Below are positions 4,348 to 59,617 of a stretch of DNA of 64,000 bases, piece after piece (positions within the stretch are counted from its first letter, which is position 1; the number at the start of each line of letters is the position of its first letter). Source of the DNA: a virus (taxonomy: Duplodnaviria; Caudoviricetes); IMG/VR virus record IMGVR_UViG_3300024229_000651. One strand, 5' to 3'. A program made the translations under genes and the position numbers. The notes below the pieces were generated by a model. The model saw nothing but the letters and a program-made list of their open reading frames with translations, ran no database searches and was not told the origin of the DNA.

Positions 4348-4695
4348 TTATTGTGGTAATTGGTCTTTTACGGAACTGAGTGCTTGGTCCCCGGCTAAGC
4401 CAGGAACATCAACTTCAGGCTCTTCAGGCTCTTCGCCGTCGAGCATATCGTTATCAATTTTACCTTTGGGAGTAATGGAATCTGCTGTAATACCGCTAAC
4501 AACATCCAATTTGTTCATAGCTGCAATAAGTTCTTCTACACTTAATAAAAACCCATCATCTGCTAAATCGTTTTTGAATTCTTGCGTAGGTATATCACTG
4601 ACATCTTCTCCAGCATACTTTGCAAGCCTGTCGCGGATTGCAACTTCTAGTTCGTCAAAAAATGACTCTAGTAAAAATACTTCCGCGATTCGCAT
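4348..4695 (-). CDS. Acidic hypothetical protein, probable head/internal protein
   Basis: Leader MRIAEVFLLE; directly downstream of 4697..6010. Confidence 0.6.
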   Translation of the reverse strand: MRIAEVFLLESFFDELEVAIRDRLAKYAGEDVSDIPTQEFKNDLADDGFLLSVEELIAAMNKLDVVSGITADSITPKGKIDNDMLDGEEPEEPEVDVPGLAGDQALSSVKDQLPQ

Positions 4696-4696
4696 T

Positions 4697-6010
4697 TTAA
4701 ATCTCTTCTACAGCGTCTACGTCAACTGGTGCTCTACCCATTGGCTCTTCTTCTGGACCTGCAGCTGCAGGAACATTGTCAACTGGTGCATCTAACTCAG
4801 GTTCAGCTAATCCAGCTTGCTGATCCATTCCAGCGCCTGCCATACTGCCTACGCCTGTTAGTGAACCTACCGTAGCATCAATTCCTTCCTTGCCCATTTT
4901 GTTAGCATCAAGTAATGCACCAAGTGATGCTTCCATACTAGACTTCATTTGTGCTGCTTGCTCTGCACCAAATTCAGCTGACATTTGATCTGCGATTGCA
5001 GGAATATCTTCGTTCATCATTCTGCCAATACGCTCGATGTGATCTTGTACGTCATCGGCTAACGCTCGTAGTGCCATTACAACTTCTGCTTGCTCAACTT
5101 CAACTTCTTCACTCAACATACTGCCTATAATGTCGTCGAACATGTTTTCGCTTTCTTCAACAGATTCTGTTTTGCTCATAGCATCTTTAACAGCATCTAC
5201 CGACATGTCAAGTTCTTGTGCAATTTCTTCAACGCTCTTACCATCATTCTTTAGCTTATGCATATATTGAATGCTGTCCAGCAAGTTTCTTTCTGCAATC
5301 TTTTTGCCAAACATCTGGATGCCGTTAACTAATGCTTCTTCGTCTAATCCATTTAAGAAACCAACTACAGCATCTCTGCTCTTGCCAGTTACTTCTGCAA
5401 ATGTATTAACTTTTTCTTCTATAGCGTTATAGCTTTCCATGCTGTTTAACTCTACACCACATTCTTTAGCAAGTTCGCTCAACAGATATTCTGTTAAATC
5501 AGTTTCGGGACTGACAAACTCTGCTAATGCTTCATCCATTACACTATCTTCAGACATGCTGCAAGATTCCATATAATCCTTAGTAGCTTTAAGCACTAGT
5601 GGCATAATAACTTGATCGTCGTATGCATATCTAGAATCTTTTCTAAATCTATTCATACATTCGGAACATGCTTCTTCATCAGTGTAGCCTCCGTCCATAA
5701 GCTCTTGAACAGTTTGCTTGACTTCATTGCACATGCTTTCGTATGCTGGGCTTTCTGCATACATGCCCTCACCTAGCATTACATCAATAACGTCTTTGAC
5801 TCCCAAGTACTTTGCATACTCTGGATCCAATTGGAAACGCTTATTAGTGTTTTTAATGCTAATTATTTTATTTTGTGCCTGCTCTCGCACTTTTTCTAGC
5901 TTGGCTTTTGGATGAAAGCCTTTTACAGAGATACCAAAATTTTCTTTTAGGTATTTGTTTAAATCGCTGACACGTTGTGCGGCAGGTTTGTTGAATGTAG
6001 TTAATTTCAT
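4697..6010 (-). CDS. Acidic helical protein, candidate prohead core/scaffold
   Basis: 437 aa, very E/D-rich with many (I/L)xE sites; late promoter at 6041-6048. Function is inferred. Confidence 0.5.
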   Translation of the reverse strand: MKLTTFNKPAAQRVSDLNKYLKENFGISVKGFHPKAKLEKVREQAQNKIISIKNTNKRFQLDPEYAKYLGVKDVIDVMLGEGMYAESPAYESMCNEVKQTVQELMDGGYTDEEACSECMNRFRKDSRYAYDDQVIMPLVLKATKDYMESCSMSEDSVMDEALAEFVSPETDLTEYLLSELAKECGVELNSMESYNAIEEKVNTFAEVTGKSRDAVVGFLNGLDEEALVNGIQMFGKKIAERNLLDSIQYMHKLKNDGKSVEEIAQELDMSVDAVKDAMSKTESVEESENMFDDIIGSMLSEEVEVEQAEVVMALRALADDVQDHIERIGRMMNEDIPAIADQMSAEFGAEQAAQMKSSMEASLGALLDANKMGKEGIDATVGSLTGVGSMAGAGMDQQAGLAEPELDAPVDNVPAAAGPEEEPMGRAPVDVDAVEEI

Positions 6011-6040
6011 ATCTAGTCCCGAAGTAGATTATATTACAAC

Positions 6041-6048
6041 TATTTATC
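6041..6048 (-). promoter_or_regulatory. Late promoter GATAAATA
   Basis: TATTTATC on the + strand in the intergenic gap. Confidence 0.65.
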
Positions 6049-6066
6049 AAAAAGATTAATTTTTTA

Positions 6067-6516
6067 TCAAGAAAAAATGTGCTTTAATTTTTTAACAAGA
6101 TGTCCCAGACGATGCGTAGAGAGATCGAGCCTAGTTTCTACAATAAAATAGCGCATTTCATCAGATGTTGTAGACATAGTATTTTTATAGAAAAATATAT
6201 CGTTATAATGCTTTTCTAATTCTGATCTATGTTTATGCAAATGTTTTTGTATGTGTGCAATTTTATTAATTACACGGTTTTTATCTGTTCTGTTTAAGCT
6301 GTTTGCACAAGTTTGTGCAAGCTCATGGATAATTATGTTCTTAATAATAGGCTTTTGAGTTTTAGCATCAACAATATCATACATGTCATACATGTTCTTT
6401 GCTGAAAAGAACATAGCCTTTCGAGCAACGTTATTCGATATTAACTCAAGTTGCTTAGATAACTTTTTCTTATCAATATTACGAGAATACTTTGTATTTG
6501 ACTTTGCCATTATCAT
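6067..6516 (-). CDS. Hypothetical protein
   Basis: Co-oriented ORF, 149 aa, basic. Confidence 0.6.
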   Translation of the reverse strand: MIMAKSNTKYSRNIDKKKLSKQLELISNNVARKAMFFSAKNMYDMYDIVDAKTQKPIIKNIIIHELAQTCANSLNRTDKNRVINKIAHIQKHLHKHRSELEKHYNDIFFYKNTMSTTSDEMRYFIVETRLDLSTHRLGHLVKKLKHIFS

Positions 6517-6682
6517 TTACCCTTATTAATACACCACTCATATATAAGTGATTTGCTTGATTATTGTCGCTCGGTGAAAGGTCACACAAATATATACCGC
6601 CTTCGTTCCGTATCTTGTCATATATCTGGAACCCTTTGCTGGACATTACAGTTTGTCCGTGTTTACCTGGTACTACTTTCAT
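6479..6682 (-). CDS. Hypothetical protein
   Basis: 67-aa co-oriented ORF. Confidence 0.55.
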   Translation of the reverse strand: MKVVPGKHGQTVMSSKGFQIYDKIRNEGGIYLCDLSPSDNNQANHLYMSGVLIRVNDNGKVKYKVFS

Positions 6683-6692
6683 ATCTACACCA

Positions 6693-6860
6693 CTACTTAA
6701 TAGATGATTGTACTTTTGGTCCAGGCTTTTTCTTAGGGCCGATCTTTTTAGGCTTCTTAGGTCGTTGCACTACTCTCTGTACATCGTTAGCAATGGACGG
6801 AATTGACGTTGCTACAGCGCCAGCTGTTATTGTTTCACCAATTATATCATGTATTTTCAT
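6693..6860 (-). CDS. Small basic protein with CTS-like leader (not in the ORF track)
   Basis: Translated by hand: MKIHDIIGETITAGAVATSIPSIANDVQRVVQRPKKPKKIGPKKKPGPKVQSSIK*. Late promoter 6 nt upstream of the ATG. Confidence 0.75.
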   Translation of the reverse strand: MKIHDIIGETITAGAVATSIPSIANDVQRVVQRPKKPKKIGPKKKPGPKVQSSIK

Positions 6861-6869
6861 ATGTACTAT

Positions 6870-8189
6870 TTATCTATTGTAGCAACTAAACACGTCTGTG
6901 AACCCGGGGTATATTTCTAACCATGATGAAACATCCTTAATTAGCATAGAATCAATGTGCTCTCGTTTACTAATAAAATTGTTGAAATTATGCTCAGTGA
7001 TTTCAATGTTTTTACTCTGTATATCTTGCCATAATACAGGAGAATCTTTTTTCATCTGTAAAGTTTCTAACTCTGCTAATATCATGTTAATTTTGTCCAT
7101 CACATTGTTTTGCTTGTCAAACATATTTGGATCATTATATAAATGGTCAAACGTTTTATACCCGTTTTTTCTTAAAAATTCAAATGTTCTACATGAACCT
7201 AAAATCATAAACGGTTGTTTCATTATGATAGGTTTATAAATTTTTTCTGTAACGTACACAGTATAGTCTACGAAGGTTTCTGTTATTATGTCGATCTCGC
7301 AGGATTTAAGTTGTTTTATAAAATCTTTATCTTGTGAGATCGACTTCATATGCACTTCTTCTTGTGATCGCCGATCAAGCACTAACGGATAATGATCTTC
7401 TAATGCTTCCAAATAAGATATGCCTTGCAACAACTCCGTTTGTGTTATACGATTTTCTAAATGTTGTTTGCCTAAGTATAGCACAGATTCTGCAAACAGT
7501 TTATTAAAAGGGACTGTAGGTGAACTAATCATACCATCTACATGCAGACCTCGCTGAATTAATCCTCCTAAAAGAAGTGCTCTGTGCGGTCTAGGAGCAT
7601 TATTAAGGCAACTAAACAACAGAGTTTTCTCTACACCATATGGATCAGCATCTTGTACTTTCTGAAACAAGTCTGCCATTGTGTCTTCTTTGTAGTTGTT
7701 AAGAAAAAACACTCTAAAATCATTTTTATATACACTGTTGTTATGTATATCAACAATGTTTTCAGCAGAATTACAATAAAATGTTTTACTTGGGTCTAAT
7801 CCAAAGGTTGTTGTTACCTGTGATATAAAATTAAATATAGAATTATCACAGTGGCCTTCTGCACTATTGTCAAACAATACGATTGGATTATTGCAATCTA
7901 GTATGTATTCGGGTATTATCTGTTTTGCTGCATCAAGTAATCTATTTTCCTCCCACAGTTTATAAATATTATCCGAGCCGATACCATCTAGACTAATAAT
8001 AAACAATACCGGCCTTTTGGACAACTTAGATATTTTATTATAGTGTATCCAGTTATCCGACATAAACTCGCACATACCTAACGCACAGTCTTTGCTAGTT
8101 GCTGGGACATTTTGGAGATCTATAATTTCAGATTTTCCACAGGAGGAAAGGAATGCTCGGAATGGGTTATCGATATCAGCAATAAACAT
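6870..8189 (-). CDS. Glycosyltransferase-like protein
   Basis: FSCLNNAPRPHR and IITET..YVTEKIYKPI..QPF..LG motifs, similar to the GT10-type TEK motif; paralog of 36648..37640. Confidence 0.5.
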   Translation of the reverse strand: MFIADIDNPFRAFLSSCGKSEIIDLQNVPATSKDCALGMCEFMSDNWIHYNKISKLSKRPVLFIISLDGIGSDNIYKLWEENRLLDAAKQIIPEYILDCNNPIVLFDNSAEGHCDNSIFNFISQVTTTFGLDPSKTFYCNSAENIVDIHNNSVYKNDFRVFFLNNYKEDTMADLFQKVQDADPYGVEKTLLFSCLNNAPRPHRALLLGGLIQRGLHVDGMISSPTVPFNKLFAESVLYLGKQHLENRITQTELLQGISYLEALEDHYPLVLDRRSQEEVHMKSISQDKDFIKQLKSCEIDIITETFVDYTVYVTEKIYKPIIMKQPFMILGSCRTFEFLRKNGYKTFDHLYNDPNMFDKQNNVMDKINMILAELETLQMKKDSPVLWQDIQSKNIEITEHNFNNFISKREHIDSMLIKDVSSWLEIYPGFTDVFSCYNR

Positions 8190-8219
8190 GTTTGTTATTT
8201 ACCGGTATAGTAAGTAGTT

Positions 8220-8615
8220 CTATTTAATCTTTGGATTTCGGTAATTTTTTAAAGAATCGACTGCTGTATCAAGCATTTGTAGATAGAAAGGGTGCATTAT
8301 ATTTTCGCCACCAGTTGTGTTCATGGTCTGCAATTTAGACTTCAATCGGCGCCATTGGCCTTTTCTGCCGTCCGGGAAGGTTTGATGAACATGTGCAAGT
8401 ATATCTTGTAATATGATTCCTTTGTATGTATCTTTTGATTGATCTAACTTAGGAAAAAAATCTCTTACAAGCTGTCTATCACTTTCGTTTGTTTTCTTTT
8501 TCCTTTTAGGAAACACACTTGGGTTAGGTCTACGCAACATTTTACTAGCTGTTGCCGTGGAAGTAGCGATGGCGCCGCTGGTAGTAGTTTCTGTAATAAT
8601 ATCCGAAATCTTCAT
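8220..8615 (-). CDS. Hypothetical protein with CTS-like leader
   Basis: True start is probably MKISDIITETTTSGAIAT, 5 nt after the GATAAATA at 8621-8628. N-terminus resembles 6693..6860. Confidence 0.7.
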   Translation of the reverse strand: MKISDIITETTTSGAIATSTATASKMLRRPNPSVFPKRKKKTNESDRQLVRDFFPKLDQSKDTYKGIILQDILAHVHQTFPDGRKGQWRRLKSKLQTMNTTGGENIMHPFYLQMLDTAVDSLKNYRNPKIK

Positions 8616-8616
8616 A

Positions 8617-9204
8617 CTAGTATTTATCTGCAAACTGGTGATTAGCAGCTGCATGCCTGGCTTCGTCATCTCTAACTGCTTTCACCATATCAAAAAGTTT
8701 AGCATCTTTATCAAGTCCATAATAATCGATAGCTAGTTGAGGTGCATCTACATTCCTAACTTGTCTATTTTCTATCATAGTTAAATATGTCGTATAGCTA
8801 AGTACTGCTTCTTCTTCAAAAAATGCAATCATTTTGTGTGCTGTTCGAGGGAAAAGTACAAACATTACAAAATAAAAATTCCAAAATATAAATTGTGCTA
8901 ATAAAATTAGAAATCTTTCAAATATATTAGGTTTTGCAATTTCTATGAAGAACATTAGATGCATGCGTTCATTCTCTGCTTCTGCAAGCAGTTCGCGAAT
9001 CATTGGGCCGTATCCGGTTTGCAGCTGGCGTAAACTTTTTAAATGTATCCACATGCCTGCAACCATCCCCGGTACGCCAGCAATAGTTTCCAATACTACT
9101 GCCCTATGTCCATAGCGTTTTGCAAAAAAGAGATCAGCAAAAAAACGGAAAAATTTTGTCATAAACATAGCCGTCATGTCCGACAGCTTGTGCTGAAATG
9201 TCAT
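8617..9204 (-). CDS. aox: Alternative oxidase (ubiquinol oxidase)
   Basis: LETIAGVPGMV, EAENERMHL, FEEEAVxSY and VRDDEARH di-iron motifs. Confidence 0.95.
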   Translation of the reverse strand: MTFQHKLSDMTAMFMTKFFRFFADLFFAKRYGHRAVVLETIAGVPGMVAGMWIHLKSLRQLQTGYGPMIRELLAEAENERMHLMFFIEIAKPNIFERFLILLAQFIFWNFYFVMFVLFPRTAHKMIAFFEEEAVLSYTTYLTMIENRQVRNVDAPQLAIDYYGLDKDAKLFDMVKAVRDDEARHAAANHQFADKY

Positions 9205-9216
9205 GGGTTGAAGCCT

Positions 9217-9756
9217 CTAGTTGTTTATTCTGATATTCACGACGTCCCAATCAATGATACGCCATATATTACTAAGGTATTTAGCTTTGTCGTGCTGATA
9301 GTCTAATGCCCACGCATGCTCCCACCAATCAATGAGCATTGCTATGTCATTTTTAATTTGGTGGTTAACTATTGTTTTGATATCACCGGATAAACTCATG
9401 TACACCCATCCGCTGCCTTGAATCTTCATTGCTACTTCTTCAAACTGCTCTTTGAAAGTCGCAAAGTCGCCGTATTTGCTATCTATAAGCTCTTTACTTG
9501 CCCCTGCAGGGTTATTACTACTACTTGGTGTTTTTAGCTGTGGGAAGAATACGTTGTGTAAGAATGCACCTGCTTCCATGAACTGTGCATCTCCTTTGCC
9601 TTCATTATATTTTGTAACGTATGCTTTAGCAAGTTTGCCGTAGTGAAAATTGATTGTGTCTTCACTCATTACAGGATCCAAGTCACTCTTGCTGTAAGGT
9701 AACTTTTCTTGCACTAACACTTTTTTATCTTCTGTTAAAAAATCGTGTAGTTTCAT
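9217..9756 (-). CDS. sod: Fe/Mn superoxide dismutase with an N-terminal leader
   Basis: LPY...FHYGK...LHNVFF...GSGW...DWWEHA..LDY; four metal ligands present. Confidence 0.92.
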   Translation of the reverse strand: MKLHDFLTEDKKVLVQEKLPYSKSDLDPVMSEDTINFHYGKLAKAYVTKYNEGKGDAQFMEAGAFLHNVFFPQLKTPSSSNNPAGASKELIDSKYGDFATFKEQFEEVAMKIQGSGWVYMSLSGDIKTIVNHQIKNDIAMLIDWWEHAWALDYQHDKAKYLSNIWRIIDWDVVNIRINN

Positions 9757-9950
9757 TTTTTCTTACCGCCTTTCATATTAGCACACCAGTGATACATTTT
9801 ACCCTTTTCACCACTGTATTTTTTAGCTTTTGCCCGTAAACTACTTACCGAACCTTTGCAACTTGCGCCTGCTTTTTTGACTCTACCTGGTCTGCTCTTG
9901 CCTTTCTTCTTACCGTCAGCAAAGTTTTCTGTAATTTCAACTATTTTCAT
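9753..9950 (-). CDS. Small Lys/Gly-rich basic protein with CTS-like leader
   Basis: MKIVEITENFADGKKKGK...HWCANMKGGKKK; translationally coupled to its neighbours. Confidence 0.75.
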   Translation of the reverse strand: MKIVEITENFADGKKKGKSRPGRVKKAGASCKGSVSSLRAKAKKYSGEKGKMYHWCANMKGGKKK

Positions 9951-12900
9951 GCGTCTGGCTTGAATTCAAACGCAAACTTTCCGCCAATGCGTGAACTGTA
10001 ATAATTCTTGGCGCCGTCTAAGCGAATTTTACCCCGGAAATTAGGTGGATACAACGCTTCCCATCCTGTTACTCTAGCATTGTCGCCTTGTTTACCCATC
10101 TTGCAGTATAACTGAACAATACTGGACTGGTTAAGGAATGCAATAGCACCTGCACTAAATTGAGGTTCTTCGTTAATCATTGCTGCTACTTTTTTAGCCA
10201 GTAACGCAATTAACGCATATCCTACATTGAATCCAGGTATGTCCTGTTTAGGTGTTCCATAGTTAAATAGTTCTTTCGCCGATTTGCTTAATCCATCGTA
10301 ATCAGTTTTTCCTGCTTTAACGTACTCCATGATTTCTAGTTCTAACTTTTTAGGTAATACACCCAACAGTTCTGCTAATCTAAATGGTCCGTCGATTGCA
10401 GTAGATTCTTGTACAATCTTAATTATTTTAACTGTGTATGCATGTGCTTTGACTAATTCTGGTGGTGCTTTATCGATAGCATCTGCAATGTTCTTAGCAC
10501 TTGCTTTTGCACCCTTGCCGCCTTTACTACTGATGCCAACTTCGGTTCCGTCTGGGCCAATGAAAACACTATCAACCAGTGCATAGTTCATTGCTTGCGG
10601 CCAGAATACTCCAAACGTAGACCACTCGGCTCCGCCCATTAAATCTTGTCTAGCATCTTCAGCTTGTCCGCCCACCATGCCGCTCATCAATGCAACTGGT
10701 CCCATGATTTCACCAAAGTAATCTCTTAGTGCCGGTAAGTTCTGTATTTGGCCTTCAAATTCAGGATGTTGCTGTGCTTGGATACTGTGCAAAGCATCTA
10801 ATAGCTGTTGCTGTATTGCGTGTCCCTGGCTGTTATTCGAGACAGTGTTTATTATGTCATCTACGCTTGTATGCTGATTTTCGTTTTTGATTAAGTGCTG
10901 TGGGTCGATACCAAGGTCTAATTTTAATGCGCCAGCTTTTTGTAATTTCCAACCAGTTGGAACTTGATTATTAGCCCATGCTCCCATCATATCTACACGC
11001 TTCTGCTTAAAATATCGACCCCAGTACACTGGCTTATCATTATTACTAGGATCTGTAAGTGTTGCAATACCGAAAGCTAGACTACCGCTGTTTGGAGTGT
11101 TAGTCCACTCAATTTGTGCATTGAGCTGTTGTTCTATATCTGATGCAAAACTTTCACGCTCTGGTGCATCATCGAACTGTGCACGATCCTGTGGGTAAAC
11201 TTCTACACTGCTGAACTCAAGCGTACTGTCCCCTTTCTTAAATTGGTCGCCCACCACTCGTCCCATTAAACCTTTTGCTTCCGCAAGTATGCTCTTAACG
11301 TGAGAGGAACTCCACTCGTTTAATTTTATTTGACTTTGAACTTCTTCAGGTAGTGCTTGAGAGAAATATTTAACTATACCTCTAGCACATGCATCGTCGC
11401 CAGCTTGCGCTCTAAGATCATGAAATGCATCTAGCATTTCAGGTATAGGCATTACTTGGTATGCAAGCATTTGCTTCTTTAAATCACATACTGGAAAATG
11501 GTCTGCCATTAACCCATTAATAATTTCTGCTCTATTAAAATCGTGCACACTCTCAAAATTCAATGCTCGCATCTCACGCTCGAATTCCAAATCGTCTAAT
11601 TTTTTACGAGTGGCTGCTTTTTTAGCATCAAATTTTGCTGGACCATACTTATCCTGGTCTTTATAAGTTTTCCTATTAGCCGATCTCTTAACTGTTTTCT
11701 TTTTACCAGGTAAACCTTTTGTCCATGCTGTGTCTGGTCTACGATTAGGCAATGAAACTTTTTCTACCCGTTGAATACCCAGTTCTTTACTTGTGGGATT
11801 GGCAGGATCTTTGTATTTTCCATCAGCTGATGCTACTTTCCTTTTGGCACCTAGTCTTGTTTGAGCAACAACTTTTTTATTTGTGCCATCCCTATATACG
11901 ACATTATACAGATATTCACCAGTGCGCAATTCTACTTTTTCATCTTCAGGTGAGGCTTTAGAAGTATCTCTGCGAGCTTGTTTTGCAATTGCTTCATCAA
12001 TTTTATTTTTATCAATTTTTTCTAAAATGGCTAGTTGTTCCAATATTGGCAACTTATCAAATTTGTCAAACGGTGTCATTTTACTTTCCTGTACATCAAA
12101 TTTTATATTAAATCTCTGGCTTAGTAATTTACGATGGTCAGTTTTTAAAAAGCTGTGCGGAACGCCGATTGGTTCGCTCTGATATGTAGTACCAGCTGGA
12201 GCAAAGCCATACTTCTTGACAAACGCATCAACAACAGGTTTATATTCCATCTTTTTGGCTTCAAATTCTGCAATATCCTGTTGTCTTTGTCTAATAGAGC
12301 CTTTGAGTCTTTCTACTTTTTCTGGTTCAGCAACTTTAAGACCTTGCTTTATACCGTCGATCAGTCCTTGTTCATGTTCGATATAACGAGTAGCCTCGTC
12401 CACTTCAAAGCGAGCACGTTTAACTTTGTCTAACTCGTCATCGCTAATCACTTTAAAATCTTGTTGACTGATTGTTGCATTACTATCGGGCTTGTTATCG
12501 CCGAATAGGTCACCGAACAGTGCACGATGCTTATCTGTGGGTATTGCTATAACGTGTCCTTTAGGTGCAGTAATAGTGTATGATGCTTCCGGTGCGTTAG
12601 CATCCTGCTTTTTCAACAAGCTGTTTACAGCCGAAGCCATCTTTTCTAGTTTGTTGTGATGATCTCCCGGGAAGTTTTTCACAAACTCTGACTGTTGTAG
12701 TTCAGTCCACAATGCTTTAGGCGTTAAGCTGAAGTCTTTTAACGCTTGTCTAAATGCTGCAATAGCCGCCGATTTAGGTTCAGCCCTATTAGCACCGCTT
12801 GCAACGTCACTGGCTAACATAGCAAAAGCTCGCACAAAGTATTTCTGTGCTTTAATCATTGTTCTACGCCAGTCTTCGTCATCGCCTTCGGCTTCGAACG

Positions 12901-15028
12901 GCATCTCTTGTTGTGGATTAGCGTTCTTTGCACTTTGTGCATCTGCTAATTCCATGTATGCATTGCTCAATGATTCAATAGCATCTGTATAATGTTTTTC
13001 ACTTGCAATACTTTGGAAAGCAGCTAACACTTTATCGTTAATGCTTTCTGGGTCAACCATTGTTTGAGCTCTTTTAACAACATCGCCGCTTACTTCGTCT
13101 TTGCCTGCAATCATTTTAAACAGTGCTTTGATGTAGTCCTTGCGATATGCTTCTTCATCATGCCCGGCTTGCATCACTGCGGCATAACGGATAACTGCTT
13201 TCATCACTTTGTCGCTCATAGTGTGATAATCGTCGCCACCTGCAACACGGAATTCAATAAGTTTATTTTGCTCTACGTTTTTAGCATCTTTAAAGTTGAT
13301 ACTGCTGAACTTGCCATTACTGATGCCGCCTAACAGTATGTCTTCGAGACCAGCAAGGCTCTTTTCATCCTTGATATCGTTTTGTAGATTTTTGATATAC
13401 TTTCGTACTGTTTCTTGTTGACTCTGTGTATAAGTGTTATGCTCTCTGCCAAACTGCTTTAACACATACTTGTCGCCTAACAGCACAGCCATTTTTAGCT
13501 TGTTAGTTTTAGCGTAGTCCGAATCCATCCAACTCATTGTGACATGCAAACCAGTTGAACTGTTTGTTTCCACATTGTTGTTGTTCATGTACTCAAACAA
13601 ACTCTTCATCTCTTTGAGCATTTCTGCTGGGTTGTCATATACAGGTGAAATAATCTCTGCTTTTGCACCTTCGCCTTCGATTGAGGTGTCATCTTCCACA
13701 CGCCAATGGTCATTGTCTACGCCTTGGCCACTGTGATATACGCCCGGACGTACATCGTTGCTCTTACTGTTGTTGCTGGCCCAATCCTCTAGCATACTAG
13801 CTACAGCATCAACACCGCCGCCTTCGCCGCCTTCGTTGTACAAGTAAATGTCCATTTCGCCTAATAGGCTCCACCAACTGCCGCCGTGTTCTCTGCGAAC
13901 CCAATCGTCCATGTCGTATTGATCCATTGCACGTTGCCAGGATTCGTCCCATGCTTCGCCATTGTCGCGGATCTGTTCCTCTAGCCACTCAATAAATTCG
14001 TCTTCTTTGTACATTTCAACATATTCACGAGGCCATGCTTCATCGTCCCAATTGCTGTACTCTTCCAGCTCGTCCTGCATGTCGTCGATTTCTAATCGCT
14101 CCAGTTTGTCTGCCTTGTACTCTTCCACTTCGTCCATGTCAACATGATCGTTTACAAACTCATCTATGTACGCTTCATCTTCTTTGCGTTCGTTGACTAG
14201 CTCTAGGACAACGTCACTCTCTATTTCGTATACAACTTCTTCTTGTAGCCATTCGCGGTATGCTTCTTCCACACTCTCCACTGCACGTGATCCTTCTTGA
14301 TCGTAAATCAAATCACCGACACGGTTCCAATACAGGTCGTCTAGCCAACTGGTGTCGTCCTCGTCACTGCCTTCGCCTAGGTTAGGCCACACAGTTTCCG
14401 CTTCAAAGCCGCACTGTATGTTCGCATTCAGTGCACCTTGTGCAAGCTCTTTGCTGTTGAAGTTGATTTCAAAAATAGGCTCACCTTGTTCGGTCATTTT
14501 AATTTTACGGGTGAGCTTTTTGATCTTTTTTTGCAAACGATCCCGCTTAAAATGAAAATTACTTGTGCTACTTTTAGATAATTTGTCTAACTTGCCTTCA
14601 GTAAACTCTGGATTAGCCACAAACACTTCTTCGTCGGGGTCGTCTATAACTGAATATTCTTTTGTTTTAGGGTTCTGCACTACTACTGCTTCAGGCTTTG
14701 TGCCTTTTCCGATAGGAGATTTTACTACACCTGCTGATTTTCCATCTTTATCAAAGTATTCCATATCTGTTTTTAGTTCGCCTGCTTTAGCATTAATAAA
14801 TTTTGGAGTCTCTTGATCATTTGCTTTAGGAACTTCTAGACCAGGCGTGGTAGTAGGGCTTCCTAAATCAGGTTTGGCTGCTGTTTTACTTGTAGTAGGT
14901 GATTTTGTAGATGCATTTGCTTTTGCACTTGATCCCATGGATTGTTGGGAAGTAGGTGTACTTGCCCCTGGCTTCATACCATACTCCATAAGTAAATGAT
15001 CTATAGTCCTAATATCTGTGAATTTCAT
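9947..15028 (-). CDS. 1693-aa multidomain protein: COOH-NH2 ligase type 2 (amidoligase) domain plus C-terminal PD-(D/E)XK-like domain
   Basis: GFEAE, WRVEDDTSI..AEIISP, TGLHV, KFSSINF and IEFR amidoligase motifs; YFGE..GP / LVDS / ISSK near the C-terminus. Confidence 0.7.
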   Translation of the reverse strand: MKFTDIRTIDHLLMEYGMKPGASTPTSQQSMGSSAKANASTKSPTTSKTAAKPDLGSPTTTPGLEVPKANDQETPKFINAKAGELKTDMEYFDKDGKSAGVVKSPIGKGTKPEAVVVQNPKTKEYSVIDDPDEEVFVANPEFTEGKLDKLSKSSTSNFHFKRDRLQKKIKKLTRKIKMTEQGEPIFEINFNSKELAQGALNANIQCGFEAETVWPNLGEGSDEDDTSWLDDLYWNRVGDLIYDQEGSRAVESVEEAYREWLQEEVVYEIESDVVLELVNERKEDEAYIDEFVNDHVDMDEVEEYKADKLERLEIDDMQDELEEYSNWDDEAWPREYVEMYKEDEFIEWLEEQIRDNGEAWDESWQRAMDQYDMDDWVRREHGGSWWSLLGEMDIYLYNEGGEGGGVDAVASMLEDWASNNSKSNDVRPGVYHSGQGVDNDHWRVEDDTSIEGEGAKAEIISPVYDNPAEMLKEMKSLFEYMNNNNVETNSSTGLHVTMSWMDSDYAKTNKLKMAVLLGDKYVLKQFGREHNTYTQSQQETVRKYIKNLQNDIKDEKSLAGLEDILLGGISNGKFSSINFKDAKNVEQNKLIEFRVAGGDDYHTMSDKVMKAVIRYAAVMQAGHDEEAYRKDYIKALFKMIAGKDEVSGDVVKRAQTMVDPESINDKVLAAFQSIASEKHYTDAIESLSNAYMELADAQSAKNANPQQEMPFEAEGDDEDWRRTMIKAQKYFVRAFAMLASDVASGANRAEPKSAAIAAFRQALKDFSLTPKALWTELQQSEFVKNFPGDHHNKLEKMASAVNSLLKKQDANAPEASYTITAPKGHVIAIPTDKHRALFGDLFGDNKPDSNATISQQDFKVISDDELDKVKRARFEVDEATRYIEHEQGLIDGIKQGLKVAEPEKVERLKGSIRQRQQDIAEFEAKKMEYKPVVDAFVKKYGFAPAGTTYQSEPIGVPHSFLKTDHRKLLSQRFNIKFDVQESKMTPFDKFDKLPILEQLAILEKIDKNKIDEAIAKQARRDTSKASPEDEKVELRTGEYLYNVVYRDGTNKKVVAQTRLGAKRKVASADGKYKDPANPTSKELGIQRVEKVSLPNRRPDTAWTKGLPGKKKTVKRSANRKTYKDQDKYGPAKFDAKKAATRKKLDDLEFEREMRALNFESVHDFNRAEIINGLMADHFPVCDLKKQMLAYQVMPIPEMLDAFHDLRAQAGDDACARGIVKYFSQALPEEVQSQIKLNEWSSSHVKSILAEAKGLMGRVVGDQFKKGDSTLEFSSVEVYPQDRAQFDDAPERESFASDIEQQLNAQIEWTNTPNSGSLAFGIATLTDPSNNDKPVYWGRYFKQKRVDMMGAWANNQVPTGWKLQKAGALKLDLGIDPQHLIKNENQHTSVDDIINTVSNNSQGHAIQQQLLDALHSIQAQQHPEFEGQIQNLPALRDYFGEIMGPVALMSGMVGGQAEDARQDLMGGAEWSTFGVFWPQAMNYALVDSVFIGPDGTEVGISSKGGKGAKASAKNIADAIDKAPPELVKAHAYTVKIIKIVQESTAIDGPFRLAELLGVLPKKLELEIMEYVKAGKTDYDGLSKSAKELFNYGTPKQDIPGFNVGYALIALLAKKVAAMINEEPQFSAGAIAFLNQSSIVQLYCKMGKQGDNARVTGWEALYPPNFRGKIRLDGAKNYYSSRIGGKFAFEFKPDA

Positions 15029-15029
15029 C

Positions 15030-15314
15030 TTATCGCCTATTTAAAGATTGTACTCTTCTGCTCTGAGGATTCAATCGTTTTGTTCGTCTAGCCTTTCTAG
15101 CCATTCTACCACCCATCTTTGCTTTTGTACGCTTGAGTGTTAGACGCTTTTTCATATTAATAGGCTTAGAGCATTGGCTAGGATTACTAACTACTCGGCC
15201 TTTTCGTCTACCAGATGTGCAACGAACTGCACGTTTTACAGTTTTCCCGGATCGACGCCATACCATACGGGTCTCCAGTAAACTATCTTCCTGTAACAGT
15301 TCGTCTAAACGCAA
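15030..15314 (-). CDS. Highly basic Arg/Lys-rich protein
   Basis: TTG start immediately after the upstream stop gives MRLDELLQEDSLLETRMVWRRSGK...; the remainder is strongly basic. Confidence 0.7.
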   Translation of the reverse strand: MRLDELLQEDSLLETRMVWRRSGKTVKRAVRCTSGRRKGRVVSNPSQCSKPINMKKRLTLKRTKAKMGGRMARKARRTKRLNPQSRRVQSLNRR

Positions 15315-15315
15315 T

Positions 15316-15564: not shown

Positions 15565-15963
15565 TTATAATAAGTCCTGTTTTGTAAATTCCATATTAAT
15601 AGAATTCTTAGTGTCGATGACACCCGAGTTTAAAACAATATCGTGCAACTCATCTATCAAGGTTTGTACAGTGTGTGCACCAGGCATTTCTGTAGCAAAT
15701 TTAAAGATGAATCCCGAACCAGTTATAGAAGAAGCACCATAGTTCTCTAGTAAATTTTGTCCTGTGCCGTTTAAATAAACTGGGTTGTTCATAACCGTAG
15801 GCATAGCCCGTAATCCAATCACTTGAACAACACTTTCAAAATCTTTTTGACTACTATCAGTGTAACTACCGGTAACACGAATATTCAAATTAGTATACAA
15901 TGTGAAAAATTCAATATTGCCTGTTAGCACTTCCAGCGAGCCCATTGCTCCGCGTCTAATCAT
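15565..15963 (-). CDS. Hypothetical protein (probable virion protein)
   Basis: SD GGAG; late promoter at 15982-15989. Confidence 0.65.
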   Translation of the reverse strand: MIRRGAMGSLEVLTGNIEFFTLYTNLNIRVTGSYTDSSQKDFESVVQVIGLRAMPTVMNNPVYLNGTGQNLLENYGASSITGSGFIFKFATEMPGAHTVQTLIDELHDIVLNSGVIDTKNSINMEFTKQDLL

Positions 15964-16009
15964 GTTTATCTCCTGTACGTGTATTTATCACGATACCGAT
16001 TATACAGCC

Positions 16010-16038
16010 AAAAAAAATCCCCAACTAAGTTGAGGATC
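16010..16038 (-). terminator. Intrinsic terminator
   Basis: Minus strand AUCCUCAAC-UUA-GUUGGGGAU followed by a U7+ tract. Confidence 0.75.
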
Positions 16039-16060
16039 TTTAATTTATAAATTTTTAAAT

Positions 16061-16303
16061 TTATACGTTGTCGAAAGTTGCTACTACAGTTACACCTGTT
16101 ACTGCTGGTGTTGGGCCGCCTTGTACAACAAGGTGACTGCCGTCTGTTGTGCCTTCAACTGCTGCGATTGTGCCGCCTTCAACCATAATTTCTGCGCATG
16201 CAGCTTCTACGGATACTGTTGCTGTTGCTACAGATACGATAAAAGTCTTAGGGCCTAAACCGTTGGACTGACGTACTGCTGCATTTGGATTAGCTTGTGC
16301 CAT
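16061..16303 (-). CDS. Small Ala/Val/Thr-rich protein (candidate decoration/structural protein)
   Basis: Strong SD AGGAG, own late promoter CATAAATA at 16357-16364 and own terminator, i.e. a monocistronic high-expression layout. Confidence 0.65.
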   Translation of the reverse strand: MAQANPNAAVRQSNGLGPKTFIVSVATATVSVEAACAEIMVEGGTIAAVEGTTDGSHLVVQGGPTPAVTGVTVVATFDNV

Positions 16304-16396
16304 TTTATATCTCCTAAACTATTTTCATGCTTAATTAAATAAGCTCTGGTTACTGTTATTTATGCAAAAGAAAAGATTTAGTGTTGTTATAGATTT

Positions 16397-16900
16397 TTAC
16401 TTTCTAGGCTTACGAATATTGCTTTTCATAAGTTTATCTGCAACATTAACAAAATCTTTGCTAATATCTGCGCCTAATTCAGCTGAATCAACGTTGAATA
16501 CATCCCTAGCAACTTGTTTAATCTTGTCTTTTGCTGCTTTGTACTTGGCGCCGGGTGTTGTTTTCTTATCCTGATAATACTGATTACCCCATTTCTTTCC
16601 TGATTTATCGCTAACTCTGTCAACTGTAGTGCTCGTAGTTGGCTCTGGTCTGGTCATAGGAGTTCGTTTTATTTTTTGGGCAGGTTCTTCCTTTGTATCA
16701 GGGGATTGCTTTTGTTTTCTGCGTTCGATGTCCTGAGCCATGCCAATAGCGTCTAATGCACTTATACCTTTATTAGACACTATACGTTTAGCTCTGGATA
16801 TAACATTATTACTTAACGAAGATCCGTGCTGTGCTTGTATTTGAGCTATCTGGTCAACGGTTAAATTTTCGTCTTCTAGAATTATATCGCTGATTTTCAT
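16397..16900 (-). CDS. Hypothetical protein with CTS-like leader
   Basis: Begins MKISDIILED. Confidence 0.7.
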   Translation of the reverse strand: MKISDIILEDENLTVDQIAQIQAQHGSSLSNNVISRAKRIVSNKGISALDAIGMAQDIERRKQKQSPDTKEEPAQKIKRTPMTRPEPTTSTTVDRVSDKSGKKWGNQYYQDKKTTPGAKYKAAKDKIKQVARDVFNVDSAELGADISKDFVNVADKLMKSNIRKPRK

Positions 16901-17679
16901 TACTGCTTTTTCCTTCCGCTAGCCCAGTATCCGGCAATTGCCCCTATACCTGCGCCAGTAGTGCTAGATATTTTGTTTTTAGACACTTTAGGTACAACTT
17001 TACTGCCTACGTATGCTCCAGCTGCTGTTGCTGCAGCTCTTTTTAACTTACTTGGCTCATTGCTAACGGGCGTATCTTTGTAGGCTCGTTCTCTTTTCAT
17101 AGAAATCAAATGATTGAATATTTCTGTAGTTTGTGCTTTTACTGAACGCAAAGACTGTAGAATTTTTGCAACCACATATTGCTTCTGGCTGTATTTTAAA
17201 TTATCCCAGTCTACAACTAAGCGTCTTAGTTGTTTGTATAATGCGTTCTTGATACTTAACTGAGATTCAAGTCTAATTAGAAATGCAGACATTTCACTTT
17301 TTGTAATATCTGTGGTTGCTACTGTACGCATCATTCTGTAATGTCTGCGATTATCAAAACTTAAACTAGCAAGCGACTTTTCAACACTGCCTTTAAACCT
17401 TAAACTTTTGTAGTCTGGGTTCTTAATTGCAAACCCCAACATATATAAATCTGTTGCTGCTGTTCTATAAGCAGCATAAGGTCCGTATTGTGATGTTTTT
17501 TGTGCATAGGCTTTTGCATAATCTCGTTGATCGCCATCTTGCGAGAACATTAATACTGCTAGTGTTTCTAGAAAAAATACGTCTGCAATATTTTGCGCAG
17601 ACATACGGCGAAATCCATCTGTGTTTCTATACAGTCTGCTTTCGCATAAATCCTCAGAATTAACCAGTAAGAGATCCAT
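16900..17679 (-). CDS. Hypothetical protein (probable internal head protein)
   Basis: LCE^SRLYR near the N-terminus; C-terminal Gly/Ala hydrophobic segment. Confidence 0.6.
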   Translation of the reverse strand: MDLLLVNSEDLCESRLYRNTDGFRRMSAQNIADVFFLETLAVLMFSQDGDQRDYAKAYAQKTSQYGPYAAYRTAATDLYMLGFAIKNPDYKSLRFKGSVEKSLASLSFDNRRHYRMMRTVATTDITKSEMSAFLIRLESQLSIKNALYKQLRRLVVDWDNLKYSQKQYVVAKILQSLRSVKAQTTEIFNHLISMKRERAYKDTPVSNEPSKLKRAAATAAGAYVGSKVVPKVSKNKISSTTGAGIGAIAGYWASGRKKQ

Positions 17680-18974
17680 TATGCTCCAGGCTTCCCGGAG
17701 CCGAAATTCAATCTGCTAAATTCTAATCTATCAACTAACTTTAACGCATTGCCAATCCTGTCAACTGCTACGAAACCTTCCTCGCCAGTAACTTCAAATC
17801 CGTCACCTGTTTCTACAAAAGTTCCTATTTGCCTGATTTGTTCTAACTTTTTAACTATACGAATTTTTGCTTCGATCAACTTTAAATATAAATCGTATAC
17901 TGCAACAATTCCAGGAATGTGCTCTTTGATAAACTTAACACCGCCTACCATTTTTTCAGTTTTAGCATCTTTAGTTTTTTGCATAGAAACTTTGTCTATT
18001 TCTTTCTTCATAAAGTTAACATATTTTTCAACAAAGCCTTGCGCAAATTTAGTAGGCTCATCGAAGTGGCCTTGACGCACTTGATTATTTGCATGAGCTT
18101 TTAGCTGTTGCAAAAAGTCTTTACCGATCAAGTCGTTGCCCTTCTCTAGCCAAGAAAATGTTTCAGAATCAACACTCTTTAGATATGATGCTGCATCTTG
18201 TATTGCTTGCATTGTAGCAGAGCTTTCCTGTGCAGTCATTGTAACAGTGCCGCTAAGATCTTTAATTATCGCATCTCTGTGCCAAACACCATTGGTCTGT
18301 CCTAACACACTGCTGTCGAAGCCAAATTTTGCAGTTGTATCAGCTAGTGTTGGGCCGCCTACGTATTCTGTATGCCAAACTATACCAAAGCCTGCTGAAA
18401 GAATTTGTTTTCCTAAATCACTATCAGCTGGAACAGCATATGTGATAGTGTTGGGCTTGAATACAATATGTTCTGTATTGTCTATAACAACTTTACGTAA
18501 ATCTTCTTGTCCTGCGAATAGCATGTCGCCTTGCGCTACAGTGTCCCAATTTAATCCTTGCAAATATTTTAATGCTAATTTTAATTTAGTACGCAATCCG
18601 CTCGAATCTTTACCCTTGGGATCTGCATGATTAACATCAATATCTTTGTTTGTAAAATTTATTTTAGGTGTTTGCGCAAAAACGCCCTTAGTTCCTACAA
18701 AAAACTTACCTGTTGCAGGATCTTTACCTGCTATAATAGCAGGAGCACCATCCCATTTTGTTGTCATACTGATCGGTGCTTTTGAATTACCTTCCAGCAT
18801 ATCGTGTAAACTGTACAAATATTCTACTGCTTCTTTAGCGCCGGCATACCCTTTATTAAATATGTTGTCTTCTAGGTGCTCAAGGTGCGTGTTTTTACCA
18901 TCCTTGCTTTCTGTAATTACAGATTCAGATAATATGTTAACAACTTTAGGCTTTGATATTTCTATAAACTTCAT
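17679..18974 (-). CDS. Covalent nucleotidyltransferase-fold (RNA/DNA ligase-like) protein
   Basis: TTKWDGAP (motif I KxDG), QGDMLF (III), EEGFV (IV), LKLV (V). Confidence 0.6.
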   Translation of the reverse strand: MKFIEISKPKVVNILSESVITESKDGKNTHLEHLEDNIFNKGYAGAKEAVEYLYSLHDMLEGNSKAPISMTTKWDGAPAIIAGKDPATGKFFVGTKGVFAQTPKINFTNKDIDVNHADPKGKDSSGLRTKLKLALKYLQGLNWDTVAQGDMLFAGQEDLRKVVIDNTEHIVFKPNTITYAVPADSDLGKQILSAGFGIVWHTEYVGGPTLADTTAKFGFDSSVLGQTNGVWHRDAIIKDLSGTVTMTAQESSATMQAIQDAASYLKSVDSETFSWLEKGNDLIGKDFLQQLKAHANNQVRQGHFDEPTKFAQGFVEKYVNFMKKEIDKVSMQKTKDAKTEKMVGGVKFIKEHIPGIVAVYDLYLKLIEAKIRIVKKLEQIRQIGTFVETGDGFEVTGEEGFVAVDRIGNALKLVDRLEFSRLNFGSGKPGA

Positions 18975-20332
18975 TATATTCCCGCAAGTAACTTCATTTC
19001 ATAAATCTTAATTTCTTTTACTGGTATAAGCATTACATGACTAGTCACGCTCTCTGATACAAGAATTTCAAACCCTACATCTTCCCACGTAAACCCTGCG
19101 GCCTCTAATACTTTGCACATATGCTGATATGCTTCTTGTCGCATACTTCTTGCAAGTTTAGTGAAATGCGTATATGCCTGGGGGTCACTTTTGGCTAAGC
19201 CGCCTTTCTTCATTACTGGAGCAGCTGCTTGTATAAATTTATCTGCATCGTATCCTTTGGTTTTTAAATTACTTAATTTACCAACAAGTGCTTTTGCAGC
19301 TGCTAAATCACCTTGCAATGTCTTGGATTGTAGCATTTTAATTTCTGATGCAGTGGGACCTGGAACTGGCTTAGGGCCTTTAGGCTGTGCTGGTGCATCC
19401 GCAGCTGGTTGGTCAGTTGCTGGTTGGTCAGTTGCTGGTGCATCTGCGGCAGGTTGTTCTCCACCTTTACCTAACGCAGACATAGCTCGGCCGATACCAG
19501 CTCCCACTGTTGCGCCAGCTTTCTTTATAGTGCCAGCATCTGGATCTGATCTTGTTGCTGTAGCAAGTGGTCCGCCGATAGCATCTGCGCCTGCTTTTTT
19601 AATTTTGTCAATACCTTGTCTAATTTTTCCGCCTAGACTATCATCCGGTGCTTGTATAACACCTGTTTTAGGATCAGGTGTTCCAGCGGCTTTATCCAAC
19701 GATTTAGACATTCTACTGTTAGGATTTTCAGCACTCGCATTTGGATCAACAACACCCTTTTGATCTGACGGCATCCAACCTTGATCATTTCGTACAAAAT
19801 GCTTACCTTGAGGCGTCTTAACAATAGCGCCAGGTATCTTACTTGGGTCTTTAGACGCTGGAGCGGCTTGTGCAGGTGCTGCTTGTGGAGCGGCTTGTGC
19901 TGGTGCTGCTTGTGCTGGTGCTGCTTGTGCAGGTGCTGCTTGTGCAGGTGCTGCTTGTGCAGGTGCTGCTTGTGCAGGTGCTGCTTGTGCAGGTGCTGCT
20001 TGCCCTGCCTTCTTAGCGGCTATTGCTGCCTTCTTTGCCTGTATGGCTGCTGATCCGCCGGCTAGTGCATCCTGTGGTTGGGCTGTACTGTTTCCTTTTA
20101 CTTGGGATCTTAAGGCCGGGTCTGTTAAAATATTGCCTTTCTTGCCGGCGGCTGTTTGTTTTACAGGAGCAACTTTAGGTTGCTTAGGCTGTGCCGGTGC
20201 TGCTTTTTTCTTTTTATTAAAAATAGCATCGTAATTGCTACTAAAGTTTTTCTGTGCTTTTGCAGACTGATCTCCACGTAATGCGCCTGGTTTTCCGGGG
20301 ACGGGTGCTTCTTCTATTTGTTCAAGTCTCAT
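18974..20332 (-). CDS. Low-complexity Ala/Pro/Gln/Lys-rich protein with QAAPA repeats
   Basis: Leader MRLEQIEEA; tandem pentapeptide repeats. Confidence 0.75.
   Translation of the reverse strand: MRLEQIEEAPVPGKPGALRGDQSAKAQKNFSSNYDAIFNKKKKAAPAQPKQPKVAPVKQTAAGKKGNILTDPALRSQVKGNSTAQPQDALAGGSAAIQAKKAAIAAKKAGQAAPAQAAPAQAAPAQAAPAQAAPAQAAPAQAAPAQAAPQAAPAQAAPASKDPSKIPGAIVKTPQGKHFVRNDQGWMPSDQKGVVDPNASAENPNSRMSKSLDKAAGTPDPKTGVIQAPDDSLGGKIRQGIDKIKKAGADAIGGPLATATRSDPDAGTIKKAGATVGAGIGRAMSALGKGGEQPAADAPATDQPATDQPAADAPAQPKGPKPVPGPTASEIKMLQSKTLQGDLAAAKALVGKLSNLKTKGYDADKFIQAAAPVMKKGGLAKSDPQAYTHFTKLARSMRQEAYQHMCKVLEAAGFTWEDVGFEILVSESVTSHVMLIPVKEIKIYEMKLLAGI
19856..20002. repeat. Coding tandem repeat, 10 units of a 15-bp unit (one unit of 12 bp), consensus TGCAGGTGCTGCTTG, encoding QAAPA
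   Basis: Counted directly; five identical consecutive units at 19928-20002. Confidence 0.95.
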
Positions 20333-59541: not shown

Positions 59542-59617
59542 TGGTGGAGCTGGAGGGGATCGAACCCACGACCTTCTGGATGCAAACCAGACGCTCTCCC
59601 TACTGAGCTACAGCCCC
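59542..59617 (-). tRNA. tRNA-Ala (UGC), CCA encoded
   Basis: GGGGCUG acceptor, anticodon arm UCUGG-UUUGCAU-CCAGA, GUUCGAUC T-loop; 76 nt. Confidence 0.95.

Follow-up and report, generated by a model that had tools for sequence, protein, structure and literature searches.

Proteins that enter the host cell together with phage DNA are usually found only through virion proteomics. In bacteriophage T4, the internal proteins IPI, IPII and IPIII and the enzyme Alt are directed into the head by a capsid-targeting sequence (CTS); the T4 propeptides comprise 10 to 19 residues, the first 10 residues of IPIII suffice for incorporation, and targeting resides in the N-terminal part, with processing at residues 8 and 10 (PMC9026906). 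In T4, the leader by itself is known to suffice for packaging of a foreign protein, and ejection of the cargo into the host is likewise established (Mullaney and Black 1996, cited in PMC9026906). Among T-even phages, the leader is conserved and the cargo is variable (PMC9026906, PMC3012670). In the phiKZ-like giant phages SPN3US, 201phi2-1 and phiKZ, the prohead protease also removes propeptides ending in x-x-Glu from head-packaged, ejected proteins (PMC5694885). Here we analyzed a stretch of 64,000 nucleotides (the window) from the IMG/VR virus record IMGVR_UViG_3300024229_000651, in which a cluster of genes at positions 4348-20332 encodes proteins sharing a short N-terminal leader (M-K/R-h-x-D/E-h, where h is a hydrophobic residue) that ends in hydrophobic-x-Glu. 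We regard these shared N-termini as most likely to be capsid-targeting propeptides of the T4 type.

The window comprises bases 185,549-249,548 of a single record of 339,794 bp, which is 91% complete by estimate and represents an uncultivated T4-type jumbo phage of about 340 kb. Its major capsid protein is 70% identical to that of PA5oct (Pseudomonas), 65% to that of Phosso (Sinorhizobium), 64% to that of 2.275.O (Vibrio) and 62% to that of GAP32 (Cronobacter), and the phage is therefore grouped with the Rak2/PA5oct-like jumbo phages. Megablast of the cluster DNA against 50,697 phage records gave no match.

The original prediction had listed a series of N-termini as variants of one tag equivalent to the T4 CTS. 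We confirmed that all of them are present on the minus strand at the starts given, namely, MRIAEVFLLE (4695), MKIHDIIGE (6860), MKISDIITE (8615), MKLHDFLTE (9756), MKIVEITE (9950), MKFTDIRTIDHLLME (15028), RLDELLQE (15314), MKISDIILE (16900), MKFIEISKPKVVNILSE (18974), MRLEQIEE (20332) and, outside the cluster, MRELKDIINE (45638). Two start details were corrected: the start codon at 15314 is TTG, one base past the stop of the upstream gene, and the start at 8615 is the second ATG within a longer open reading frame (ORF), with a GATAAATA box 13 nucleotides (nt) upstream. Eleven window proteins carry a short N-terminal extension that ends in (L/I)-x-Glu and lies outside the conserved or mature domain. 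The leaders are 8 to 22 amino acids (aa) long, always end in hydrophobic-x-Glu (Glu at P1 and a hydrophobic residue at P3), and sometimes contain two such sites.

The motif is rare in the genome and concentrated in the cluster. Of 7231 candidate starts examined in six frames, 14 fit M[KR][ILFVM]x[DE][ILFV], and nine of these are gene starts in 4348-20332, a region making up 4.7% of the genome (binomial p = 1.8e-9); these nine are all on the coding strand and within 22 codons of the upstream stop. As a control, only 2 of 2313 internal Met residues of all called proteins matched, one of them being the start at 8615. Counted per gene, the motif occurs in 10/21 cluster genes versus 3/372 elsewhere (Fisher p = 4e-12). 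We also built a position-specific scoring matrix (PSSM) solely from leaders that one protein family carries in other genomes (28 leaders of nine residues). When it was run over the N-termini of this genome, the five top scores all fell on cluster genes (15.1 bits for the superoxide dismutase [SOD] described below, then 11.2, 10.5, 7.5 and 6.7 bits), against a background mean of -17 and a standard deviation of 6.2. No replication gene carries the motif, as the original prediction would have it. Outside the cluster, matches were found in a 66-aa protein adjoining the portal gene, in a 231-aa protein at 45638, and in genes at genome positions 158,952 and 160,646, which are part of a second, split-off piece of the block.

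A protease and putative cut sites of the kind that a CTS system involves are encoded in the same genome. A prohead protease of the gp21 family (Peptidase S77) lies at genome positions 272,084-272,692 (PF03420, 85.5 bits against a cut-off of 27), and a major capsid protein of the Gp23 family lies at 269,805-270,947 (PF07068, E value 2e-81). The head module is ordered portal, 66-aa protein, unrelated 271-aa protein, acidic protein, protease, coiled-coil 370-aa protein and capsid protein, and by its position between protease and capsid protein the 370-aa protein is assigned as the scaffold. The putative cleavage motif (I/L)-x-E is carried by the capsid, scaffold-position and protease proteins themselves. 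The capsid propeptide contains LLE-18, VLE-33 and LQE-41, the last of which (...RHLQE/SATAG; a slash marks the predicted cut) is aligned to LLRE/STTT of T4 gp24; the scaffold-position protein begins MAVNFKDLIE, with a site at LIE-10; and the protease begins MSPTASKIELLE, with a site at LLE-12, resembling MNEPQLLIE of T4 gp21. In the T4 record, MKTYQEFIAE is encoded twice, and the other N-termini or sites are MAKINELLRE/S in gp24, MELITELFDE in Alt, MLKEQLIAE in gp22 and ...FLTE/AEIGG in gp23.

By analogy with T4, we infer that the leader, a short amphipathic acidic-hydrophobic segment, would bind the scaffolding core during prohead assembly, that the S77 protease would cut at the terminal hydrophobic-x-Glu, and that the mature protein would remain in the head beside the DNA and be ejected with it into the host. 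The block downstream of the gp41-type helicase gene would represent the internal-protein set of this jumbo phage, consisting of six small or medium-sized, very basic, IP-like proteins, a Fe/Mn-SOD, a DUF6267 protein and a 1693-aa modular protein, the last of which is probably also cut at an internal ILAE/AKG site, releasing a nuclease-like module. The kind of system is known, being the CTS/internal-protein system of T4, with which this locus shares an N-terminal segment of about 10 to 20 residues (M-K-x-x-acidic-hydrophobic-hydrophobic-x-Glu), the protease family, the capsid family, and a cargo of mostly small basic proteins plus an enzyme. The novelty lies in the clade, in how many genes are tagged, in the nature of the cargo (SOD, modular polyprotein and DUF6267 protein) and in the connection to a virion proteome that already exists. 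T4 has 4 or 5 tagged genes, whereas about 12 to 14 are found here, grouped directly past the gp41 helicase gene; the leaders are 8 to 22 residues long with occasional double sites; the cargo comprises Fe/Mn-SOD, DUF6267 and the modular protein with its probable internal cut; and the phage is a marine relative of Rak2/PA5oct jumbo phages with another host. The phiKZ-like propeptides on packaged, ejected proteins differ more in form, since they are mostly longer than 100 residues, end in A/S/G-x-E rather than L/I-x-E, and belong to another lineage.

In the SOD, the leader lies outside the conserved domain. The short, 179-aa Fe/Mn-SOD (9217-9756; this and all other window genes described below are on the minus strand) carries MKLHDFLTE/D before the LPYxK start of the SOD fold and has the highest PSSM score of the genome. 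Its predicted identity held up, with 37.1 bits for Sod_Fe_N (cut-off 27, E value 5e-9) and 78.9 bits for Sod_Fe_C (cut-off 20.9, E value 3e-22). Its alignment to solved Fe-SODs begins at residue 17 of the phage protein, and from our reading of the alignment with 8avm_A the metal ligands are in place (His of FHYGK, His of LHN, and Asp and His of DWWEH); the hairpin has about 18 residues fewer than in that structure. Nearly all of the best 120 metagenomic homologues (about 178 aa) have a leader before LPYxK, in more than 100 members, of the form MK[LVI]x[DE][FL]LxE or ...[IL]RxLIxLVE. The orthologue in the related IMG/VR locus L008 begins MRLTQLNEE.

The same arrangement is seen in the 431-aa DUF6267 protein (17679-18974; PF19782, E value 6e-99), whose leader is MKFIEISKPKVVNILSE/S, with the site VITE/S. 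The conserved domain begins GKNTHLEHLED, and with homologues from 462 phage records the alignment does not start until residue 20-30. Among 51 distinct metagenomic N-termini, the pattern is M[KR]FxEISKP...(I/L)(I/L)xE, often with a second hydrophobic-x-Glu, followed by the invariant KNTHLEHLED. This protein had been called ligase-like on account of a KWDG motif, which is indeed invariant (K73-W-D-G76); profile and fold comparisons gave that label no support. Comparison by hhalign with T4 Rnl2 and T4 DNA ligase returned a probability of 0.2%, the best ligase match in a Foldseek search was T4 Rnl1 at an E value of 0.16 (model pLDDT 68), VIA-align returned helical bundles only, and a PDB sequence search gave only a chance hit.

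The most telling family is that of the C-terminal module of the 1693-aa multidomain protein (9947-15028; leader MKFTDIRTIDHLLME/Y). The original prediction of an amidoligase/nuclease polyprotein stood in its first part, as Amidoligase_2 (PF12224) matches at about residues 438-585, marginally above the cut-off of 22 (24.3 bits over the full length, 25.9 bits over the segment), and phrog_7469 "amidoligase enzyme" matches as well; the nuclease label found weak fold resemblance only. The C-terminal module of about 445 aa, behind the ILAE/AKG site near residue 1247, is also encoded by itself, as a protein of about 455 aa with a leader of its own, in about 100 metagenomic clusters. Across 75 distinct leaders of this stand-alone form, P1 is Glu in 75/75 and P3 is L/I/V/M in 74/75, even though leader length ranges from 9 to 20 (plus one 2-residue N-terminus) and is bimodal at 9 and 16; every one of them ends directly before the conserved [AS]KG[ILV]FGR. 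At the fusion junction the window protein reads ...VKSILAE/AKGLMGR, and the orthologues in loci L006 and L008 read VME/AKG and LEE/AKG, respectively, which suggests that the 1693-aa protein may be cut into parts at this internal site. In the L007 orthologue (L007:10001-15277, plus strand), the same junction region is followed by another C-terminal module, of about 450 aa, and it therefore seems that effector modules are swapped at the putative cleavage site. Altogether, five IMG/VR loci (L006-L010) contain the block, the L006-L008 orthologues keep the leader while its sequence drifts, and further tagged genes in these relatives begin MKLTDIIQE and MKIYEILTE.

These data bear on the possibility that the pattern has its cause at the nucleotide level, either as an AT-rich, structure-free start that favors translation or as a gene-start cassette spread by recombination between neighbors. 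The codons are in fact AT-rich (ATG AAA ATH ... GAT ATH), many of the genes either are tightly coupled or immediately follow a promoter-like box, and the module swap in L007 is an exchange of cassettes at this very locus. Modular shuffling is known in T4-type phages, and two reports describe promoter-linked shuffling in T4-like phages (PMC2839356, PMC4122927). However, the constraint falls on the amino acids at the far end of the leader irrespective of its length, and the site is retained at an internal junction that lies about 1247 codons away from any start, so that selection on translation starts cannot explain it. Besides, the leader is missing from most genes of the genome, highly expressed structural genes among them, and it predicts virion detection in PA5oct, as shown below. 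We therefore consider a nucleotide-level cause very unlikely.

As for the module itself, its nuclease character is a lead from weak fold resemblance. The model (pLDDT 86) shows a small beta-barrel plus a domain weakly like MspI, HhaI and HinP1I-type endonucleases. Foldseek found nothing at an E value of 0.001 or lower (MspI was top, at 0.48), the VIA-align Z scores of 4.8 for MspI, 4.7 for HhaI and 4.2 for HinP1I (residues 170-454) are below the level that carries weight, and weak protein-language-model neighbors carry the RE_HaeIII and MspI families. The invariant residues D247, S261 and K263 could be a variant of the MspI/HinP1I-like motif. A tblastn search of the module against cultured phages gave no match, and the module is known from metagenomes only.

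Judged by its capsid protein, PA5oct is the closest relative in culture. It encodes a protease of the same family and homologues of the SOD and of the 437-, 231-, 132- and 88-aa proteins of the window, and differs in having only about eight leader-bearing genes. Of its 461 proteins, 93 are flagged as virion detected by electrospray ionization tandem mass spectrometry (ESI-MS/MS) (GenBank record; PMC7318152). We rebuilt its genome from the record, scanned six frames with the leader pattern plus the requirement for hydrophobic-x-Glu, and looked up the annotation afterwards. The scan returned eight leader-bearing gene starts plus one match deep inside an ORF, and six of the eight genes (gp150, gp175, gp205, gp238, gp380 and gp381) are flagged. 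This is a significant enrichment over 93/461 (Fisher p = 0.0012; p = 0.0045 with a stricter pattern) of flags that denote presence in virion preparations, neither cleavage nor location in the head. The SOD homologue gp261 (40% identity), annotated as hypothetical, has the N-terminus MNDSIKKYISIAE/AASS and is also flagged. Furthermore, PA5oct gp225-gp239, which follow the primase and helicase genes, are mostly virion proteins detected by mass spectrometry and are syntenic with the window block. They include homologues of the 88-, 132- and 437-aa proteins; gp234 is flagged, as are gp237, which begins MFLKDVKITE, and gp238, which begins (V)KIKDILVE. The main text of PMC7318152 makes no mention of leaders, cleavage motifs or superoxide dismutase. 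One of the PA5oct genes, gp175 (L039:89-301, record 105688-105900), encodes 70 aa from a GTG start with a KILEMAE leader and is flagged by ESI-MS/MS, although it lies beside a dihydrofolate reductase gene, far from the structural genes.

Cleavage of the propeptides would also be expected if the tagged proteins were core or scaffold assembly factors that are degraded or expelled instead of being delivered. T4 gp22, gp67 and gp68 have similar N-termini and are destroyed by gp21 (PMC5694885). Two small, very acidic cluster proteins (4348-4695, pI 4.1; 4697-6010, pI 4.3) resemble core proteins, and the leader-bearing 66-aa protein adjoining the portal occupies the position of gp67, as the small leader-bearing gp150 does beside the portal gene of PA5oct. 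For the acidic members, a disposable-scaffold role may well be correct. For the set as a whole we consider it unlikely, because a disposable scaffold made of enzymes such as the SOD and of very basic, DNA-binding-like proteins would make no sense, and the PA5oct homologues or analogues gp150, gp237, gp238 and gp261 are flagged in mature virion preparations.

Another explanation is that the leader is recognized by some other modifying or sorting machine, such as the radical-SAM enzymes of this genome or an export system. Such enzymes do occur in the genome; however, no radical-SAM gene lies in or adjoining the window cluster, and PA5oct, Melnitz and Vibrio phage 2.275.O have leader-bearing proteins with no Radical_SAM match. 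The leader is acidic, without a hydrophobic core or Cys/Ser/Thr targets, and resembles neither a Sec/Tat signal nor the typical core of a ribosomally synthesized and post-translationally modified peptide. We regard this explanation as scarcely credible.

The interpretation as T4-type capsid-targeting propeptides is the one on which the S77 protease, the gp23-type capsid protein, the sites in the phage's own head proteins, the add-on nature of the leader, the internal junction and the PA5oct enrichment agree, and in this respect the original prediction is supported. Several points weigh against it, in addition to the limited meaning of the PA5oct flags. The phage is an uncultivated IMG/VR record, and for it the evidence is indirect. 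The scaffold-position protein has no recognizable sequence similarity to T4 gp22, so that binding of the leader to the core is proposed by analogy only. Two of the eight leader-bearing PA5oct genes, gp271 and gp382, have no flag, nor has gp228, the candidate DUF6267 counterpart, and among cultured-phage records none annotates a DUF6267 homologue as structural. To our knowledge, a cargo of 190 kDa exceeds any natural internal protein of T4. Finally, some genes of the block lack a leader, namely, those for the alternative oxidase (AOX), the 149-, 439-, 132- and 80-aa proteins, and an 82-aa membrane protein; the AOX without a leader lies beside the tagged SOD, and thus not every gene of the block encodes cargo.

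The prediction of several basic proteins among the tagged cargo candidates can be put more precisely: there are six, with pI values of 9.7 to 12.0, and four of the six are small (55-131 aa) and similar to T4 internal proteins. The largest is a 452-aa protein (18974-20332; pI 9.7) with the leader MRLEQIEE/A, whose L007 orthologue has the canonical leader MKINEFVTE/A and aligns in its C-terminal part only, with 35% identity. A 167-aa protein (16397-16900; pI 9.8) has the leader MKISDIILE/D (PSSM, 7.5 bits), and MKISDIILE is retained in its L006 orthologue. A very basic, 94-aa protein (15030-15314; pI 12.0) has, from its TTG start, the leader (M)RLDELLQE/D (10.5 bits), and its L008 orthologue begins MRLSDLTE/G. 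The remaining three are a 65-aa protein (9753-9950; pI 10.3, 31% Lys plus Arg) with MKIVEITE/N, a 131-aa protein (8220-8615; pI 10.2) with MKISDIITE/T (11.2 bits), and a 55-aa protein (6693-6860; pI 10.6) with MKIHDIIGE/T (6.7 bits) and a GATAAATA box at -13. The 55- and 131-aa proteins have in common not only the leader but also the next ten residues (T-I/T-T-A/S-G-A-V/I-A-T-S; TxTSGAIATS in the 131-aa protein), and they look like paralogues that diverged past the conserved N-terminal part.

Other members of the block are acidic, or carry no leader or an atypical N-terminus. The first gene past the gp41-type helicase encodes an 88-aa protein (20322-20588) without a leader, preceded by a GATAAATA box 31 nt upstream; it matches phrog_11854 "virion structural protein" (E value 6e-14), and its PA5oct homologue gp225 is likewise placed after the helicase. 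The 132-aa protein (15565-15963), also without a leader, is homologous to PA5oct gp234 (tblastn, 38% identity, E value 4e-23). Leader status is uncertain for a basic 259-aa protein (16900-17679; pI 9.9) with the atypical N-terminus MDLLLVNSE, whose orthologues begin MELLLINSE, MELQLVNQE and MDLQILNTLTE. The 195-aa alternative oxidase, a PTOX-type di-iron oxidase (8617-9204; PF01786, E value 3e-67), begins MTFQHKLSDM. Two oxygen-stress enzymes, AOX and SOD, are encoded side by side, of which apparently only the SOD would be packaged. The acidic 437-aa protein (4697-6010) has an N-terminus, MKLTTFNKP..., that is merely leader-like, and it matches phrog_14154 "virion structural protein" and PA5oct gp237 (tblastn E value 1e-15). 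LKE-22 was rejected as its cut site, since it aligns with LKS within the conserved part of gp237. The acidic 115-aa protein (4348-4695) has the leader MRIAEVFLLE/S, and its L008 orthologue begins MRLTELFE/D. PA5oct gp238 is its positional equivalent, with no sequence match between the two. Outside the cluster, the 231-aa protein (44943-45638; leader MRELKDIINE/S) matches phrog_14802 "virion structural protein" and has homologues in PA5oct (gp202, flagged by ESI-MS/MS) and in Vibrio phage 2.275.O, where the protein begins MKDLNTILTE/S.

The cluster had also been placed under late promoters. This was only partly right: none of the cluster genes has the T4 late promoter TATAAATA upstream, and a (G)ATAAATA box precedes several of them instead. 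It was found within 60 nt upstream of 54/393 genes in the genome. It accompanies the starts at 6010, 6860, 8615, 15963 and 20588 and, outside the cluster, the start at 45638, and the remaining cluster genes are tightly coupled downstream. Because the same box precedes portal, baseplate and tail genes, the cluster plausibly belongs to the late class. The box often starts at -12/-13 and ends about 5 to 6 nt before the ATG, with no Shine-Dalgarno sequence between (window 6861-6880 and 8616-8635, and many other sites, e.g., genome 94752, 103161, 276473-side and 297446), and such close boxes would yield leaderless or nearly leaderless late mRNAs. A second class of boxes lies at -28 to -37, with AGGAG.

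We found that the gene block is also common to the marine Kyanoviridae (cyanomyoviruses, HTVC008M of Pelagibacter and Melnitz of Methylophilales), which have the order helicase, unknown gene and DUF6267. Leader-like N-termini after the helicase are MQGFKTFLSE, INFSKYITE, MKKFSEIIE and MKNFKNHIAE in Melnitz and MYNDLLVE and MKSFKDFQNVNE in HTVC008M. The genomes of these phages are half as large and contain no SOD, 1693-aa protein or nuclease-like module. A cytidylyltransferase-like core protein of the Kyanoviridae was found in S-SM1 virions (Sullivan et al., PMC3037559), and the corresponding gene of the present genome (162,595-164,214) has no leader. Our literature search found no report on a CTS in cyanophages, marine T4-like phages or PA5oct-like phages, and none on a virion SOD in phages; its coverage was incomplete, and novelty is not proven by it.

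A second, split-off piece of this Kyanoviridae-type post-gp41 block was observed elsewhere in the genome, in locus L037 (genome 157001-165000). Its genes include one for a Cys-rich, basic 171-aa protein (leader MKIYEITE) with homologues in HTVC008M and Melnitz, one for an 89-aa protein that has a homologue in Melnitz, and one for the 539-aa cytidylyltransferase-like protein, which lacks a leader. The locus also encodes a 257-aa protein (L037:1952-2725, plus strand; genome 158952-159725) with the leader-like start MKLNDLGKKYLELE, which contains VEKPKKGKGSYARSDKH and matches Pfam ArfA (ribosome-rescue factor A) with 22.6 bits, just below the cut-off of 25.5.

A wider proposal, which we put forward tentatively and consider possible rather than probable, is that the leader is an address label common to Rak2/PA5oct-like jumbo phages and marine Kyanoviridae, on a set that includes an active SOD, an internally cut 190-kDa protein and an ArfA-like peptide. 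If so, sequence by itself could suffice to list the proteins that are packaged in the capsid and delivered along with the DNA. The active Fe/Mn-SOD would, as far as our literature search shows, be the first virion-delivered bacteriophage SOD described; the head protease would cut the 190-kDa protein at internal hydrophobic-x-Glu sites, separating its amidoligase part from a nuclease-like effector that can be exchanged; and the ArfA-like ribosome-rescue peptide, encoded elsewhere in the genome, would also belong to the loaded set. Should the tag work as it does in T4, sequence would make it possible to predict the first actors of infection in ocean and jumbo phages, a large group that is mostly uncultivated. 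The predicted cargo extends beyond anti-restriction proteins, and the SOD family with its leader-bearing members points to protection against oxidative stress in the particle or at entry. The conserved internal cut site suggests packaged polyproteins with exchangeable effector modules, and the leaders may enlarge the natural repertoire of packaging tags that T4-style protein delivery can draw on.

In addition to the protein-coding genes, the window contains three tRNA genes on the minus strand, at 59542-59617, 59855-59930 and 60246-60335 (Ala-TGC, Gly-GCC and Ser-GCT, respectively), and simple ORF calling yields spurious ORFs that overlap them.

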